From Escherichia phage LF82-4, in sequence record PV660448: a stretch of DNA of 64,000 bases, one strand, 5' to 3'. The translations under genes and the position numbers were made by a program. Below are positions 26,027-48,108 of the stretch, piece by piece. How positions within the stretch are numbered: position 1 is the first letter of the stretch; each line of letters begins with the position of its first letter. The notes under the pieces are model-generated. The model was not told where the DNA came from. It worked only from the letters and a program-made list of their open reading frames with translations, and searched no databases.

Positions 26027-26244
26027 GTCACCTTTAAACAGTATTCTTCTACATGCTGTTTACGACCTTTCTTATCAATAAAGGTATATTCAACGAATGT
26101 TCCAATGTAGTCTTTATCGACATCATGTGGACTATTAATTGGACATTTAGTACGACAAATGCGTTCCCATTGACGAATAATTACTGCTTTATTTTTAGGA
26201 TCAAACGGATGTGGGTAATGCACATTCATAATAATGGTTCCCAA
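26017..26244 (-). CDS. hypothetical protein
   Basis: 75 aa ORF. Confidence 0.4.
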   Translation of the reverse strand: MGTIIMNVHYPHPFDPKNKAVIIRQWERICRTKCPINSPHDVDKDYIGTFVEYTFIDKKGRKQHVEEYCLKVTWL

Positions 26245-26723
26245 TCAACAATCACAATTTCTAGTTTAGTGGAATATGTATCAAGAATTTCTTCAATGAT
26301 ATCCCAGTTTCCACCACCTATACCTGCACCAATTCTTGGCATGTAAATCACAGGCTTTGCTATCTTATTCTTTCCGAATTTATTTAATTCTATTATACAA
26401 TTCATTAAAGCAGAGTACTCAAAATTAGGTCCGGGCTCAAACTGTGTATAAAGATTAAAGCAATAAGCTTTATGGGTCTTAAAATATTTTTCATAAACCG
26501 AATAGGAACCGAGTTTAGACTCGTCTCCGAATTCGGTTTGAAGTTTATCGGCTTCTAAAATTTTTGGATAAGCCTTTGCTAATTGTCCTGCTACACCAGC
26601 GCCCATTGTATGAAAACAATTGCACCCATGAGCAATATTATTACCTTTAGAAAACAGGGCGACAATATCGCCCTTGATATAGTTTTTAATCACTTGCTGC
26701 AAGTCCTCTAGTATAAGAGTCAA
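26226..26723 (-). CDS. putative macro-domain-like protein (ADP-ribose binding/processing)
   Basis: 165 aa; glycine-rich motifs MGAGVAGQLAKAYP and PRIGAGIGGGNW resemble the two signature loops of macro domains; assignment by motif only. Confidence 0.45.
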   Translation of the reverse strand: MTLILEDLQQVIKNYIKGDIVALFSKGNNIAHGCNCFHTMGAGVAGQLAKAYPKILEADKLQTEFGDESKLGSYSVYEKYFKTHKAYCFNLYTQFEPGPNFEYSALMNCIIELNKFGKNKIAKPVIYMPRIGAGIGGGNWDIIEEILDTYSTKLEIVIVDWEPLL

Positions 26724-27033
26724 CTAGACGGTCCACCATAGAATTGCATGCTGCCTTATCTTTAGGTTCCGCCACCGAGCATTCTAATATTTGCCATTTT
26801 TTATAGTATCTTTTAATTAAGGTAGACGCCTTGAACCTACTAGACGCCCCATCTTTTTCTCCGTCTTTATATGCATATAACAATTTTTGTGAAAAATCTA
26901 CTTTACACTCTTGACTTTTACCACAATAATCAGACGCCGTTCTGTTTGTATACTCCGTTACATCAGTATATGTAGTATTAGCAAGAGCGTTAAATGAAAC
27001 CAAGCCAACTATTAAAGCCAACATTTTGGTCAT
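26686..27033 (-). CDS. hypothetical secreted protein (T4 vs position)
   Basis: 115 aa with N-terminal signal peptide MTKMLALIVGLVSFNALA; several cysteines. Confidence 0.45.
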   Translation of the reverse strand: MTKMLALIVGLVSFNALANTTYTDVTEYTNRTASDYCGKSQECKVDFSQKLLYAYKDGEKDGASSRFKASTLIKRYYKKWQILECSVAEPKDKAACNSMVDRLVDSYTRGLAASD

Positions 27034-27572
27034 TCTTTTATTTCCAGTAGTTTATTTGATTTAAGGTAATTAGCCTTTTCTAGGACTTCAGAAGCATATT
27101 TACTTCCAGCACTTGTCTTCCATCCAGCATTATATGAGGATATGGCTTTCCTTATATCCCCGTTATGTATATTTAACCAATAAGAAAATTCGATATAAGC
27201 CCATCTTGCTGAATTAGACCGCTTAGATAGCATTTTCTTAATTTGGGCATCAGTCATATTATAACCAAGCTGGTTAATTCTTGCCCTCATTGTTGGTAGA
27301 TAATTTTGGAACATTCCATACGCATGGTGACCTTTCTTATCTTTAAGATTAATACCGGCAGATGATTCCTGCCATAGTATTGCGGCCATTATGTATCCAA
27401 GTCCTTTCTTATGCATATTTTCATGCGTTTTAAATTTTCCATCCTTAGAAAACTGTTCCCCAAACTGATAAGCATAATTCAAGTTATCGAGTTGGACATT
27501 ACTAAAAGTATGCTCGGAGCTATGTGCTGATAACGAAAGAGCAAATAGACCAGCGAGTAGTGCTTTTCTCAT
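27030..27572 (-). CDS. putative periplasmic lytic transglycosylase
   Basis: Signal peptide MRKALLAGLFALSLSAHS; catalytic-type ES motif (ILWQESSAG) and AYNAG-like motif typical of SLT domains. Confidence 0.65.
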   Translation of the reverse strand: MRKALLAGLFALSLSAHSSEHTFSNVQLDNLNYAYQFGEQFSKDGKFKTHENMHKKGLGYIMAAILWQESSAGINLKDKKGHHAYGMFQNYLPTMRARINQLGYNMTDAQIKKMLSKRSNSARWAYIEFSYWLNIHNGDIRKAISSYNAGWKTSAGSKYASEVLEKANYLKSNKLLEIKE

Positions 27573-27580
27573 GTTTACCT

Positions 27581-28039
27581 CTAGATTTTAATCACTGCTT
27601 TAGAAGCTTTTCCTGGTAGTCGTTTACTGTTAATAATAGCCATTCTGCATTGAAGAGTCTTCATTTTGAATGCTGGATTTTCGCGACAAACTGTAAGTCC
27701 TAACCAAAGATTTCCATCAGTTATTTCTAAACGGCCTGGGCGATATTCGACACCTTCGACAAAATCTTCATCAACATCTGGACGTGCCGGCATTGATAAA
27801 AATTCTGCAACTTCTTTAGCATGATTTTTTACTTTATGAAATAATTCAAAAACGTAATTCTCATCTATTTCTCTCTGGATGGCACGATCTAAGAGATGTT
27901 GAGAATACTTGATATGAAAGCCTGGTAGTCCAAGAGACTTTGCAGCATCTTTTATACCGGCATTTATTTTGCGGAACTCCGTTTCAAAGATTCGACGGAG
28001 TTTATTACGGCGGATAAAAACTTCCGAATTGATAGTCAT
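27581..28039 (-). CDS. regB: endoribonuclease RegB
   Basis: Start MTINSEVFIRRNKLRR...; C-terminus LQCRMAIINSKRLPGKASKAVIK matches T4 RegB from memory. Confidence 0.9.
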   Translation of the reverse strand: MTINSEVFIRRNKLRRIFETEFRKINAGIKDAAKSLGLPGFHIKYSQHLLDRAIQREIDENYVFELFHKVKNHAKEVAEFLSMPARPDVDEDFVEGVEYRPGRLEITDGNLWLGLTVCRENPAFKMKTLQCRMAIINSKRLPGKASKAVIKI

Positions 28040-28095
28040 TTTGATTTCTCCTCTAGTTGACAAGTCTATAGTAACACAACTAGAGGAGAAGTAAA

Positions 28096-28395
28096 CTACT
28101 CTTTGAAAGGAATTAACTTTTTAACTGCTTTAGATACTTCGTCACGAACCTGATGGAAGTTCTTGAGCTGTTCAAGGCGTTGTTCGTAATACGCAATCTC
28201 ATCTTCTTCAAGACAATCGTCAGCGTCTTCTTTCAGATATGCCTTGTACTCATTAAAGAGGGCCCATAGGCGGTTCTCAAAGTCATCAAGGCTTTGAATT
28301 TTCTTGTGCTTCGGAACAAGGCCAAAAGGATTGCTTTCAGTTATGCGTCTAGATGCTTCATAATGAGTTCCAAAGCCTGATAGGATTTGAGCCAT
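28096..28395 (-). CDS. hypothetical protein
   Basis: 99 aa ORF. Confidence 0.45.
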
Positions 28396-28661
28396 TAGTA
28401 TTTTTCCTCAGGTCGAAATACTGCACGACAGGCCCACATGCTGGCTTCTTTTAGATGTTGCTTAGCATACTTAAGAGCCTGTACTGCATCCATATCTTCT
28501 TTGGTTTGTTGCTCTGTTTCATTTTCTTTCAAGATATATGCTTCTTCAATCAGAGCATCAAACAACAATCCAAGACGGACTTCTGCATCTTTAATAGCGT
28601 TCACTTTACCGATTTTATCGTCGGTATGCGGCTTGTAGCCTTTGATGTCTTCAATCGACAT
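28395..28661 (-). CDS. hypothetical small protein at T4 vs.4 (Acb2) position
   Basis: ORF track 28395..28829 truncated to ATG 28661 (GAGGAAA RBS); 88 aa helical protein; assignment by gene order after regB only. Confidence 0.35.
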
Positions 28662-28875
28662 AAGGAATTTCCTCATCGGTGACAAGGTCATATTCGACCA
28701 ATTGGATAGGCTCGTTAATACCATATCCACGTACAGTGATATCGGTTGTCGGATATTTTCCAGTAATATCACCCATTCTAAATGCTTCAGTGAATGATTG
28801 CTCACCTGAGCAACTAAACCAGGCGGCAAAACATTTTAAAACATCTTCAGACCCTTCTATAATCAATTTAGCCAT
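28651..28875 (-). CDS. hypothetical protein
   Basis: 74 aa acidic ORF. Confidence 0.4.
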   Translation of the reverse strand: MAKLIIEGSEDVLKCFAAWFSCSGEQSFTEAFRMGDITGKYPTTDITVRGYGINEPIQLVEYDLVTDEEIPYVD

Positions 28876-29237
28876 TATAGACTCTCAGTAAAGGTACGAG
28901 CGATAACGTCGCGCTGCTGTTCCGGAGTCAGAGAGTTAAAGCGAACTGCATAACCGGATACACGAATGGTCAGCTGAGGATATTTTTCCGGATGCTTAAC
29001 TGCATCTTCCAGAGTTTCACGACGCAGAACGTTAACGTTCAGGTGTTGACCACCTTCAATTTTAACTTTAGGTTGATGTTCAATTTCAATTTCACGGGCA
29101 TGTAAACCGTAGAAAATTTCCGGGTCTACAATAGCGTCTTCTTTAAAAGTCTTAGAGACGATAATCCGGGCTTGAGTACCATCTTCAAAATAAATAGTGC
29201 CTTTATGTACACCTTCAAGAATTTGATATGCTTTCAT
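28875..29237 (-). CDS. autonomous glycyl radical cofactor (GrcA/YfiD-like)
   Basis: 120 aa; C-terminal glycyl-radical motif [13 protein letters not shown] as in pyruvate formate-lyase C-terminus; T4 is known to encode such a homolog. Confidence 0.8.
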
Positions 29238-29243
29238 ATAACC

Positions 29244-29552
29244 TCAATTAGAAAATAAATTTATCCAAGTTTTTTCTTTAATCAAAAATGGGTCGGAATT
29301 AAACGCCATTAAACTTTGAGTGATTAATCCCTTAAACGGCCCATCAATAAATTCCATTTTGAAATGCGGAATACTAGTCATCAACCGTGCATTAGGAGCA
29401 GTACAAAGAACCTGCTGCCCCGCGAAAGGACCTTTAGTCAAACTGTATCGTTTAGGTTTAAAATGGTAAATCTCATAATTTTCTACAAGAGCCCTTTTAT
29501 TGCATACTGGGCTGTTATAACAATATTCAAAAACTTCAATAGTGGTCATCAT
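29244..29552 (-). CDS. hypothetical protein
   Basis: 102 aa ORF. Confidence 0.45.
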   Translation of the reverse strand: MMTTIEVFEYCYNSPVCNKRALVENYEIYHFKPKRYSLTKGPFAGQQVLCTAPNARLMTSIPHFKMEFIDGPFKGLITQSLMAFNSDPFLIKEKTWINLFSN

Positions 29553-30088
29553 TGCATTCCAATCACAAAAAATTGAGGACGAGCATTACCGCCGATGCAA
29601 TATTTGCTTTTGCAACAGTGTTGGACTGTTTTAATATGGACATTGTAAATCTTATCCATATCAGGAGCTTTAATAGGCTCGTCAATTATGTACAGAATAC
29701 GAGAAAGCGTTAATCCACGGAATTTAGAACCTTCATTGCCAATAAAACTACGGACAGAATCGGTAAATAAACGGAATCGAATATCATCGCTAGAATAACG
29801 AGAAAATTCTTTTTTAATGTTGCCAGCAGAAATTTTAGCATAGGCTGAAGTATTAGAAAGAACAATAACTGTTCCACCATCATACAGCCAATTAGCAGCA
29901 AAGTTAGTCACAGCAATTGATTTACCTGATTGTCGGCCGCCGTCTAAACGAAGTGTACAGTACTGCTTGAGTACGTCTTCAAACGGTGGGATATAACCGT
30001 TCTTACAAATTTCTTCTACTCTAGCATCAGAATGGTGTGTAAAAGCATTCATCAGGGATAGATAAGGTCCAGTTAAAAATGTTCTCAT
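29549..30088 (-). CDS. putative P-loop NTPase
   Basis: 179 aa; Walker A-like GGRQSGKS and Walker B-like ILYIIDEP. Confidence 0.45.
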   Translation of the reverse strand: MRTFLTGPYLSLMNAFTHHSDARVEEICKNGYIPPFEDVLKQYCTLRLDGGRQSGKSIAVTNFAANWLYDGGTVIVLSNTSAYAKISAGNIKKEFSRYSSDDIRFRLFTDSVRSFIGNEGSKFRGLTLSRILYIIDEPIKAPDMDKIYNVHIKTVQHCCKSKYCIGGNARPQFFVIGMQ

Positions 30089-30201
30089 TTAGTTTCTCTT
30101 TTAGGTTGGGCCATTCCGTGGCGCATGAATTGTCCATTTCTGTATTTACCCCTCTAAGTAATTATGAATATACTATCACAATTCTAGGAGAAAGTAAACT
30201 G

Positions 30202-30504
30202 TTATTTACCTTTAATTACTTTAGCTGCTTCGATAGCCGCTTGCTGAAGGTCATCCATAGACATACCGAATTTAGAAGCAAAGTTATCAATTTTCTTTTC
30301 GACAGCATTCAAAGGCTTGGCCTGTTTACCTTCATTAGCGCCAGGAAGAGCGAGAATACGCTCTTTGTCAATATAAAGGCTTACAAGTTTCTTACGGTCT
30401 TTATCGGACAAATCATGAAATGAATGGGCCTTTTTATTTATAGCGGCTTCTAATTTACCTGCACTCACTCGCGCTTCAGTAATAAATTCTTGATATGTTT
30501 TCAT
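30202..30504 (-). CDS. internal protein (capsid-targeting-sequence bearing)
   Basis: N-terminus MKTYQEFITEA matches the conserved capsid targeting sequence of T4 internal proteins IPI/IPII/IPIII. Confidence 0.65.
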   Translation of the reverse strand: MKTYQEFITEARVSAGKLEAAINKKAHSFHDLSDKDRKKLVSLYIDKERILALPGANEGKQAKPLNAVEKKIDNFASKFGMSMDDLQQAAIEAAKVIKGK

Positions 30505-30568
30505 TTTTTGTTTCCTTGTTTGTTTTGATAGAGTAATTATACCATATTAATACTTAAGCGTAAACAAT

Positions 30569-30829
30569 TTAAGCTTTACCGCCAGAAATAATTCCGAAGT
30601 TGTTAAAATCGTATCCAATATCGTCAACATCTACTTTAGGATTTACTACAACATAAGCAATTTCACTACGTTTTGCATAGGTGTTGATTTCTTTACCATC
30701 GCCACCTAAGAAAGAATACCCATTACGTTTTAATGAGCCAAAGTCTTCGGCATCACCAATGAAAGCTTTAACTTTAAATTTAGGACCTTTGGCATCTGCT
30801 TCAATGATAAATTCTTGATACATTTTCAT
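30569..30829 (-). CDS. internal protein (capsid-targeting-sequence bearing)
   Basis: N-terminus MKMYQEFIIEA. Confidence 0.65.
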   Translation of the reverse strand: MKMYQEFIIEADAKGPKFKVKAFIGDAEDFGSLKRNGYSFLGGDGKEINTYAKRSEIAYVVVNPKVDVDDIGYDFNNFGIISGGKA

Positions 30830-30835
30830 TTTTCC

Positions 30836-31249
30836 TTAGTAAATTGATTTACCATAGTATTTGTACCAAGTAGGACGTTGAGCAATTTTTTCATCTAAGC
30901 GTGCTTGACTTATCGCAACGGACGCTTCGGACGGGACATAATTATTACGAAATTCGGCAGGGATGTCGGAAATATCCTGGACTGTCGTGTCCTTGATTTT
31001 GAAACCACGTTTCAAGCATTCAGCGATTAGCTCGATTTGTCGTAAACGTAAAAATTCAAGTTTGTCGTAAAAGAATGTTACGTGACCTGTGCCTAAGATA
31101 AATGTTGGAGAGATTTTAAAATCCTTTACACGTTTACCGTTTTGGACATGTTTACGGACTGCACTAAATACGCGTGGTAATTCACGATACTCAGCCATAA
31201 GATGTTGATCGGTCAGTTCAGAAACAAGTGTTAAATTGATACGAGTCAT
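30836..31249 (-). CDS. denV: endonuclease V (pyrimidine dimer DNA glycosylase) DenV
   Basis: Start [28 protein letters not shown]; near-identical to T4 DenV from memory, 137 aa. Confidence 0.95.
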
Positions 31250-31589: not shown

Positions 31590-32074
31590 ATATACGCTTT
31601 CCAAGTTCCTGTTTTAAATGTTGAGATTACGCGTTTCGCGCGATTAGGTGTCTGACGATACCATTTAGATTGGGCGAGATTTACTGCCGCTTCATCCCAA
31701 CGTTTCTGTTGAAGCATACGAAGAGAATTAGTAAAACCAGCAACGCCTGCTACACCCATTTGGAAGACCATATTGACCAATGCACATCGACGAACCGCGT
31801 CTAAAGAATCATATACCGGTTTAAGTTTAGCATTACCCAAGATTCCGCGAACGGCTTTATCGACGTCTTCGTTAAATAGCTTTTCAGCCTCATCAAGGGT
31901 AATTGTACCGTTGCATTTACGACCGATCATTCTGTCAAGTTCAGCTTTAGCTACGGCTAAAGACGGGTTCTTTGTTACTAAATGGCCTATGCCAATCGTC
32001 CAAAAGCCTTCAGTGTCTTTGTATAAAGTCAGTCTAAGACCTTCGTCATTACGAAGCATTTCAAATATATTCAT
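31586..32074 (-). CDS. e: endolysin (T4 lysozyme family)
   Basis: [28 protein letters not shown]; catalytic E11, D20, T26 context conserved; C-terminus differs from T4 lysozyme. Confidence 0.95.
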
Positions 32075-42299: not shown

Positions 42300-42985
<686 letters not shown>

Positions 42986-46375: not shown

Positions 46376-48108
46376 TGGAAATGATTAGCAGTAGCCTTAA
46401 TTGGTTCGTGGGTGTTGTTGAGGACAGAATGGACCCATTAAAACAAGGGCGAGTTCGAGTTCGAGTCGTTGGTCTTCATCCAGCACAGAGAGCACAAGGT
46501 GATGTACAAGGTATTCCTACAGAAAAACTTCCGTGGATGACTGTTATTCAACCTATTACGTCTGCATCAATTTCAGGTATTGGTGGTTCTGTTACAGGTC
46601 CTGTTGAAGGAACTCGAGTATATGGTCATTTCTTAGACAAATGGAAAACAAACGGGATTGTACTTGGTACATACGGCGGAATCGTACGTGAAAAGCCTAA
46701 TAGACTTGAAGGTTTTTCAGACCCGACTGGCCAATATCCGCGACGTTTAGGTAATGATACGAACGTATTAAACCAAGGTGGTGAAGCTGGTTATTATTCA
46801 AACTCTAACGTAATTCAAGATAACAACTTGGATTATGGTATAAACCCAGATGATACAGATTTGGCAAATATTCCAGAAGATGATGACCCTAATTTTACAA
46901 TAACAGAAATGTTACGTCGTGACGAAGGACTTCGTGATAAAGTGTATTGGGACCATCTAGGGTATCCTACAGTAGGTATTGGACACCTTATCGTAATGGA
47001 AAAGACCCGAGATATGTCTCGAATTAATAAATTGTTATCTGACCAAGTAGGGCGTGAAGTAACAGGAAATCCAGGGACTATTACATTAGAAGAAGCAACA
47101 GCGTTATTTGAGAAAGACCTTGCTAAGATGCAGAAAGATATTCGTTCTAATTCTAAAGTAGGTCCTGTTTATGCCAAAATGAATAGGTCTCGCCAAATGG
47201 CATTAGAAAACATGTGCTTCCAAATGGGTGTTGGCGGTGTAGCAAAATTCAATACTATGCTTAAAGCAATGGCCGCAGGCGATTGGAAAACTGCATACAA
47301 ATCTGGGCGTGATTCGTTATGGTTCCAACAGACTAAAGGACGTGCTTCACGCGTAACAACAATTATTTTAACTGGTAACATGGAATCATACGGTGTTCCT
47401 GTTAAAACACCACCTTCGCCTGGTGTTGGTGCCGATTTAGTTACTAGAAATACAGATCCAGAAGATCCGGCTAGTCCTCCTGTTCCATTAGATTCACGTA
47501 TCCTTTTTAAAGAACCGGAATCAAGTTATCGTGGTGAATACCCGTATGTTCATGCTATGGAAACAGAAAGCGGACATATCCAAGAGTTTGACGACACTCC
47601 AGGTAATGAACGTTATCGCTTAGTTCATCCGACAGGGTCATATGAGGAAGTTTCTCCATCCGGTCGTCGTACTCGTAAAACTGTAGAAGACCTTTTTGAC
47701 ATCACTAATGGCGATGGGAACTTCTTGATTTCTGGTGATAAACTTGTTAACGTTGGTGCTAATGAAATATATTATAACATGGCAGACCGCCTCCATCAAA
47801 TAGATGGCAGCGACACAATCTTTATTCGTGGTAACCAAACTAAAACTGTTGAAGGCGATGGAACTCTTTACGTTAAGGGCAATATCAAAATAGTTGTTGA
47901 CGGAAATGCAGATATTCTTGTTAAAGGTGATGCTAAGACTCAAGTTGAAGGGAATCATGACTATACTGTCAATGGTAATGTTAAATGGACTGTCAATGGT
48001 AATGTTGATATGACTGTTGCTGGCAATTGGTCTGAGACAATGACTACAATGAGCTCAATAGCTTCAGGACAATATACTGTTGACGGATCTCGTATTGATA
48101 TTGGGTAA
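46375..48108 (+). CDS. 5: baseplate hub and tail lysozyme gp5
   Basis: 577 aa; central lysozyme domain (DEGLRDKVYWDHLGYPTVGIGHL) and C-terminal beta-helix V-x-G repeats ending VDGSRIDIG. Confidence 0.95.
   Translation: MEMISSSLNWFVGVVEDRMDPLKQGRVRVRVVGLHPAQRAQGDVQGIPTEKLPWMTVIQPITSASISGIGGSVTGPVEGTRVYGHFLDKWKTNGIVLGTYGGIVREKPNRLEGFSDPTGQYPRRLGNDTNVLNQGGEAGYYSNSNVIQDNNLDYGINPDDTDLANIPEDDDPNFTITEMLRRDEGLRDKVYWDHLGYPTVGIGHLIVMEKTRDMSRINKLLSDQVGREVTGNPGTITLEEATALFEKDLAKMQKDIRSNSKVGPVYAKMNRSRQMALENMCFQMGVGGVAKFNTMLKAMAAGDWKTAYKSGRDSLWFQQTKGRASRVTTIILTGNMESYGVPVKTPPSPGVGADLVTRNTDPEDPASPPVPLDSRILFKEPESSYRGEYPYVHAMETESGHIQEFDDTPGNERYRLVHPTGSYEEVSPSGRRTRKTVEDLFDITNGDGNFLISGDKLVNVGANEIYYNMADRLHQIDGSDTIFIRGNQTKTVEGDGTLYVKGNIKIVVDGNADILVKGDAKTQVEGNHDYTVNGNVKWTVNGNVDMTVAGNWSETMTTMSSIASGQYTVDGSRIDIG

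Follow-up and report, generated by a model that had tools for sequence, protein, structure and literature searches.

The window analysed here is a stretch of 64,000 nucleotides from Escherichia phage LF82-4 (sequence record PV660448), and the open reading frame (ORF) under study runs on its minus strand from an ATG at 28661 to a TAA stop ending at 28395, a length of 89 codons that gives a protein of 88 amino acids. An earlier note on this DNA had reported an 88-aa ORF at exactly these coordinates and, counting genes from regB, had put it in the slot of T4 vs.4; the ORF is the second gene after regB, and the order matches that of the annotated T4T record. Across the neighbourhood the succession is tk.4, vs, vs.1, regB, vs.3, vs.4, vs.5, vs.6, vs.7 and vs.8, as in T4, a synteny supported by tblastn of T4 proteins against the window and by Pfam scans of the neighbouring genes. 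The order on the regB side, a vs.3-slot gene followed by regB, was also found in loci L052-L054. When positions 27000-30200 were compared with other records, the DNA was 100% identical to Escherichia phage LF82-1 (PV648359) and sibling isolates and about 98% identical to Shigella phages SHSML-52-1 and Shf125875, and matches were obtained in about 860 T4-like phage records. The features of the locus are collected in Table 1.

Table 1. Position of vs.4, of its parts and of the genes discussed with it in the LF82-4 window
Feature	Position	Strand	Evidence or remark
vs.4 / acb2 coding sequence	28395..28661	-	88 aa plus TAA stop; ORF, homology and synteny
Shine-Dalgarno sequence GAGGA	28670..28674	-	8 nt upstream of the vs.4 ATG; kept in T4
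Vs.4 residues 1-40, conserved N-terminal arm and first helix	28542..28661	-	alignment of 121 homologs
Vs.4 residues 41-65, end of helix 1, hairpin loop (43-49) and first half of helix 2	28467..28541	-	variable segment
Vs.4 residues 66-88, conserved second half of helix 2 and C-terminal tail	28398..28466	-	alignment of 121 homologs
vs.3-like ORF, 99 aa	28096..28395	-	neighbour of vs.4 on the regB side
regB	27584..28039	-	RegB PF10715, 229.9 bits
vs.5-like ORF, 74 aa	28651..28875	-	72% identity to T4 Vs.5
vs.6-like gene	28875..29237		glycyl-radical GrcA-type protein, PF01228; DNA 95-100% identical to T4
tk.4-like gene	26226..26723	-	macro domain PF01661, 28.1 bits
Acb1, homolog of T4 gp57B	42303..42758	-	PF23474, 196.8 bits; 84% identity to T4 57B

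The vs.4 gene shares sequence with the genes on both sides: the final A of its TAA stop also opens the ATG of the vs.3-like ORF (a TAATG overlap), and its first 11 nt overlap the 3' end of the vs.5-like gene. It appears to share a transcript with these neighbours and to be coupled to them in translation, and coupling to both of them is a feature of the T4 gene as well. In a promoter and terminator scan of positions 27500-30700, promoter-like sites were no commoner than in shuffled sequence, and no convincing signal adjoining vs.4 was observed.

To identify the product, the protein was compared with sequence, profile and structure collections. A phmmer search of all PDB chains returned one significant match, 7UQ2, which is T4 Vs.4 with cGAMP (E=9.8e-31, residues 3-88), and BLASTP against T4T Vs.4 gave 57 identical residues out of 87 (66%; E=4e-38). 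The Pfam model PF24729 (Acb2_Tad1_hairpin) matched residues 8-83 along its full length (profile positions 1-58 of 58) at 65.7 bits, with a gathering score of 27. PHROG 717, the family that Jenson et al. used to gather 198 Vs.4 homologs (PMC10097602), was matched at E=3.6e-28. A search of 5.8 billion proteins yielded 142 homologs, with PF24729 present on all 120 of those listed, and tblastn found the protein in 1231 phage records. When a profile of the 121-member family was run against the PDB chains, 7UQ2 was recovered at 6.9e-41 and the chains of Acb2 from Pseudomonas phage PaMx33 (8H2J, 8H2X, 8H39, 8IXZ and others) at 6e-5, the profile alignment pairing Y9 with Y11, K24 with K26 and R79 with R85 of the PaMx33 protein.

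The AlphaFold2 model, built from the 121 sequences as a single chain and so giving the fold of the monomer and not the assembly of a hexamer, is a two-helix hairpin with helices at residues 14-42 and 50-81 (mean pLDDT 87.7); its only beta element is a single bridge between residues 9 and 87. Foldseek against the PDB placed three chains of 7UQ2 at the top (TM 0.73-0.75, E down to 9e-7). PaMx33 Acb2 chains came lower down, at TM 0.65-0.67 and E of about 0.7, which is weak, so that the link to PaMx33 Acb2 rests on the profile search. Neither the PDB matches of the family profile at E<=10 nor the top 50 Foldseek matches included a chain named Tad1. The earlier note had described a small helical protein and had assigned it to Vs.4/Acb2 by gene order alone. 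It had left to later work the pairwise alignments to T4 Vs.4 and to Pseudomonas phage Acb2 and the comparison of predicted structures; these have now been run, and they agree with the assignment, as do the Pfam and PHROG matches, the synteny and the functional residues described below.

Jenson et al. (2023, PMC10097602) found T4 Vs.4 to be hexameric and to hold three molecules of cGAMP, with a Kd of about 30 nM; another source gives 84 nM for 3',3'-cGAMP (PMC10312549). In the T4 protein Y8 and F82 stack on the cGAMP bases, while Y8, H11, K23 and R79 contribute hydrogen bonds and salt bridges. The substitutions S74N, T12I and A77I abolish inhibition of CapV, as do mutations of L29, A66, A73 and A77, and F33A destabilises the hexamer (PMC10097602). 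LF82-4 Vs.4 is longer than the T4 protein by one residue at the N-terminus and shorter by one in the loop, and its numbering therefore equals that of T4 from residue 48 onward. Allowing for this shift, the base-stacking aromatics (Y9 and F82) and the polar or charged cGAMP contacts (H12, K24, S74 and R79, for T4 H11, K23, S74 and R79) are all kept and are invariant in the 121 homologs. The hexamer-interface residues L30, F34, A66, A73 and A77 (T4 L29, F33, A66, A73 and A77) are kept too, and so is the helix cap T13 (T4 T12). Positions that are invariant in the 121-sequence alignment comprise D5, I6, G8, Y9, H12, K16, V20, N21, K24 and E27 and, in the C-terminal half, A66, L70, K71, E72, S74, M75, R79 and F82. 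In PaMx33 Acb2, Y11 and K26, the partners of Y9 and K24 in the profile alignment, were reported to be essential for cGAMP binding (PMC10312549).

Taking into consideration homology, fold, gene position and the retention of all published functional residues, we assign the ORF with high confidence to vs.4 (acb2) of a Tequatrovirus and its product to the predicted anti-CBASS nucleotide sponges. The gene is already known, in that structures have been solved for its family, for which a Pfam model and a PHROG are also defined. UniRef names the homologs 'Acb2/Tad1 hairpin domain-containing protein'; in GenBank the protein stands as 'hypothetical protein', in 61 records at an identity of at least 99% and in 134 at an identity of at least 95%. 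The protein and its identical GenBank copies, that of LF82-1 included, can confidently be relabelled as Acb2/Vs.4 anti-CBASS sponge. The importance of the result lies mainly in this annotation.

The LF82-4 allele is only 66% identical to the experimentally tested T4 protein; hexamer assembly, nanomolar binding and inhibition of CBASS are what we infer for it by homology. By analogy with T4 Vs.4, six of the 88-aa hairpins would interlock into a hexamer with three pockets, each lying where the N-terminal arm of one protomer meets the C-terminal tail of a second. A single cyclic dinucleotide, such as 3',3'-cGAMP, would be held in each pocket, with Y9 and F82 stacking on the bases and H12, K24, S74 and R79 holding the phosphates and riboses. 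With the signal sequestered, CBASS effectors such as the phospholipase CapV would stay inactive, and the phage would be able to finish its cycle. For T4 itself, deletion of vs.4 costs about 50-fold in plating on E. coli with a type II CBASS whose Cap2 is inactive.

The likeness to T4 Vs.4 (7UQ2) extends to the slot between regB and vs.3 on one side and vs.5 and vs.6 on the other, to the length of 88 aa, to the two-helix hairpin, which is predicted here, and to the identity of every cGAMP-contact and hexamer-interface residue. The differences lie elsewhere: LF82-4 Vs.4 carries a serine (Ser2) after the initial methionine, has one loop residue fewer, lacks the T4 loop cysteines C47 and C50, and has I, M, V, Q, K and Q in place of T4 Y37, A57, L60, D61, T64 and T68. 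At the DNA level, identity of vs.4 to T4 is 78-89% at both ends of the gene and falls in the middle to 36-40%, which is about random. Over residues 1-40 and 66-88 the T4-class alleles (P0043 and P0044) are about 85-87% identical to LF82-4, whereas over residues 41-65 the identity is about 14%; by this comparison the two central segments are, in essence, unrelated sequences.

The same division runs through the whole alignment. Column entropy in the 121 sequences is near zero in residues 1-40 and 66-88 and reaches 2-3.5 bits in residues 41-65, and the loop of the homologs ranges from 7 residues shorter to 10 residues longer than that of LF82-4. The conserved parts are 65-97% identical, while the centre is 0-30% identical or less than half, with higher values only in the three closest homologs. 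Variability of residues 41-65 is, on the evidence of the alignment, a property of the family as a whole. A literature search found no paper pairing 'Acb2' with 'hypervariable'.

Positive selection, or a swapped cassette, was first suggested by the divergence of the centre and by pairs in which pN of the centre exceeded pS of the flanks. To evaluate this, Nei-Gojobori pN and pS were computed separately for the conserved parts and for the centre, in a set of 47 IMG/VR loci together with three intermediate alleles (P0002 to P0004). In the conserved parts pN/pS was about 0.05-0.2 among close relatives, and omega was about 0.03-0.07. Between LF82-4 and locus L005, for instance, the conserved parts differ by five synonymous changes and one non-synonymous change, and the 25 codons of the centre by three and one, respectively. 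For the centre, where 25 codons lend little strength to pairwise Nei-Gojobori estimates and alignments between allele classes are unreliable, omega was about 0.06-0.2 within an allele class and 0.15-0.25 against the intermediate alleles P0002 and P0003. Values of 0.5-0.8, nearing 1, were seen only in deep comparisons, in which synonymous sites are saturated and the alignment is unreliable. Once the intermediate alleles are included, omega of the centre is 0.06-0.25 wherever dS can be interpreted, with no evidence of omega above 1 at these divergences, and positive selection was therefore rejected. These values indicate, as far as codon comparisons can, that the centre is under relaxed constraint, much looser than that on the ligand-binding and interface parts, and relaxed constraint is enough to explain the pattern.

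In some pairs the centre had a greater synonymous distance than the conserved parts. Over positions 27581..30100, identity to T4 is likewise a mosaic, with the DNA of vs.6 at 95-100% and that of vs.5 at about 70%, and with values of only about 35-50% in parts of vs.7 (around 29450..29530) and of vs.3 (around 28240..28370). The mosaicism of T4-like genomes is well known, and both the differences in synonymous distance and the patchwork along the region fit it.

Since the substitutions that set this allele apart from T4 include residues assigned to a pocket, we considered whether the protein might be an Acb2 sponge with a shifted or broadened set of ligands, having either a second pocket that accepts cyclic trinucleotides (or another signal) or the capacity to bind 3'cADPR. 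Acb2 homologs are known to differ in their binding range. PaMx33 Acb2 (8H2J, 8H2X, 8IXZ; Huiting et al. 2023; Cao et al., PMC10312549) belongs to the same Pfam family and has the same fold, and the expected mechanism, a hexamer that would sequester three cyclic dinucleotides, is the same. It is, however, a distant relative, matched in sequence only with the family profile, and it also binds cA3 and cAAG in two further pockets, for which R67 and T74 are used and for cA3 are essential; JBD67 belongs with it to the trinucleotide-binding subgroup (PMC10312549). T4 Acb2, in contrast, binds dinucleotides but not cA3 or cAAG, and its Y37, A57, L60, D61 and T64 are said to fill the would-be trinucleotide pocket (Cao et al., PMC10312549). 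The counterparts of these pocket-blocking residues in LF82-4 are I38, M57, V60, Q61 and K64, the last four of them within the variable segment, and their replacement is a point in favour of an altered pocket.

Both residues on which the PaMx33 pocket depends are nevertheless absent from LF82-4: in the profile alignment Q61 and Q68 stand at the positions of R67 and T74, where T4 has D61 and T68, and the T4 protein fails to bind cA3 even with the threonine in place. With glutamines at these two positions, trinucleotide binding is not expected, and LF82-4 Vs.4, like T4 Vs.4, probably does not bind cyclic trinucleotides. As for 3'cADPR, some Acb2 homologs bind it instead of cyclic dinucleotides. 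Acb2_43 (Hadary et al. 2025, PMC12393519) is one such protein, a hexameric hairpin sponge of the Acb2 family which binds 3'cADPR through added terminal beta-strands and does not inhibit CBASS. LF82-4 Vs.4 differs from it, in a comparison made with its published description, in that the T4-type contacts to cyclic dinucleotides are kept; these contacts are intact and invariant, and membership of the 3'cADPR-binding subgroup is consequently unlikely. The centre, moreover, bears the marks of relaxed constraint (omega 0.06-0.25) and not those of adaptive change. Taken together, we give a shifted or broadened ligand range very little probability.

It is, similarly, quite improbable in our judgement that the allele class with the unrelated centre (about 134 phage records at an identity of at least 95%) differs functionally from T4 Vs.4. 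If it did, a new specificity could, for example, reside in a second pocket on the three-fold axis, or the hairpin tip could evade a host factor that recognises the sponge itself; the family's variable centre would in that case be the surface of an arms race and more than a loosely constrained loop. The preferred reading is still that of a T4-type sponge for cyclic dinucleotides with a loosely constrained hairpin tip.

The 142 homologs, the 1231 phage records and the strong purifying selection on the conserved parts show that vs.4 is a real gene and not a chance ORF. The two plus-strand ORFs that overlap it (28438..28638 and 28455..28682) are mechanical only, as conservation and codon substitutions fit the minus-strand frame. 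That this copy is decayed or non-functional and kept by linkage alone is almost certainly wrong, as the ORF is undamaged over its full length, no functional residue has been lost, and close relatives differ by synonymous but by almost no non-synonymous changes.

A longer product is just as hard to sustain. Going upstream from the ATG at 28661, the vs.4 frame meets no stop for 56 codons, as far as a TTG at 28829, and translation could in principle begin there or at one of the in-frame ATGs between the two; the earlier note had raised the worry that an upstream ATG would give a different protein. In T4, however, the same frame is closed by a stop 13 codons before the vs.4 ATG, and in the DNA alignment GAGGAA followed by ATG is kept in both phages, LF82-4 adding only the codon for Ser2. 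Similarity to T4 Vs.4 and to all homologs starts at residues 2-3, and the DNA upstream of the ATG encodes, in another frame, the conserved vs.5 homolog (72% identity to T4 Vs.5 by tblastn). The GenBank record of the identical phage LF82-1 calls the same 267-nt coding sequence. The T4 stop, the conserved Shine-Dalgarno sequence and the point at which homology starts dispose of the worry, and with the overlap with vs.5 and the GenBank call they establish the ATG at 28661 as the correct start; the probability of a longer product is negligible.

A second anti-CBASS gene lies further along the window. The homolog of T4 gp57B (Table 1) corresponds to Acb1, which serves the same purpose as Acb2, the removal of CBASS signals, but has an unrelated fold and acts as a phosphodiesterase that degrades the signal instead of holding it as a sponge. 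Judged by these matches, LF82-4 carries both known T4 anti-CBASS genes, Acb1 and Acb2, and would thus have the same two-part anti-CBASS equipment as T4. Nucleotide binding by T4 Acb2 triggers the defence system Panoptes in a manner that depends on Y8 and F82 (PMC12657218). Both residues have their counterparts here, and LF82-4 Vs.4 would therefore probably also trigger guard systems of the Panoptes type, which sense nucleotide sponges. The anti-CBASS pair and the expected sensing by Panoptes are relevant to the choice of therapeutic phages against E. coli LF82-like strains.

Near vs.4, the tk.4-like gene may also act in host interaction or counter-defence, since the macro domain that it encodes is of a class that binds ADP-ribose or removes it.

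Several other departures from T4 were observed in the window. The N-terminus of the vs.8 homolog (29549..30150, minus strand) looks frame-shifted relative to T4T: residues 18-36 of T4 Vs.8 match 30150..30094, while residues 35-216 match 30097..29552 in a different frame. The vs.8 ORF, both as read here and in GenBank, starts at 30088 and has 179 aa, compared with 216 aa in T4T. Beyond vs.8 the gene order is unlike that of T4, where vs.8 is followed by denV, ipII and ipIII; in LF82-4, vs.8 and denV (30839..31249, minus strand) are separated by an ipII-like gene for an internal protein (30202..30504, minus strand), whose product shares 94% identity with T4 IpII across 86 aa, and T4 IpIII had no tblastn match in the 64,000-nt window. 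Finally, the lysozyme e ortholog was found at 31592..32074 (minus strand), and a second region similar to T4 lysozyme e, with 41% identity over about 160 aa, lies on the plus strand at 46900..47391; this is probably the lysozyme domain of the baseplate hub protein gp5.
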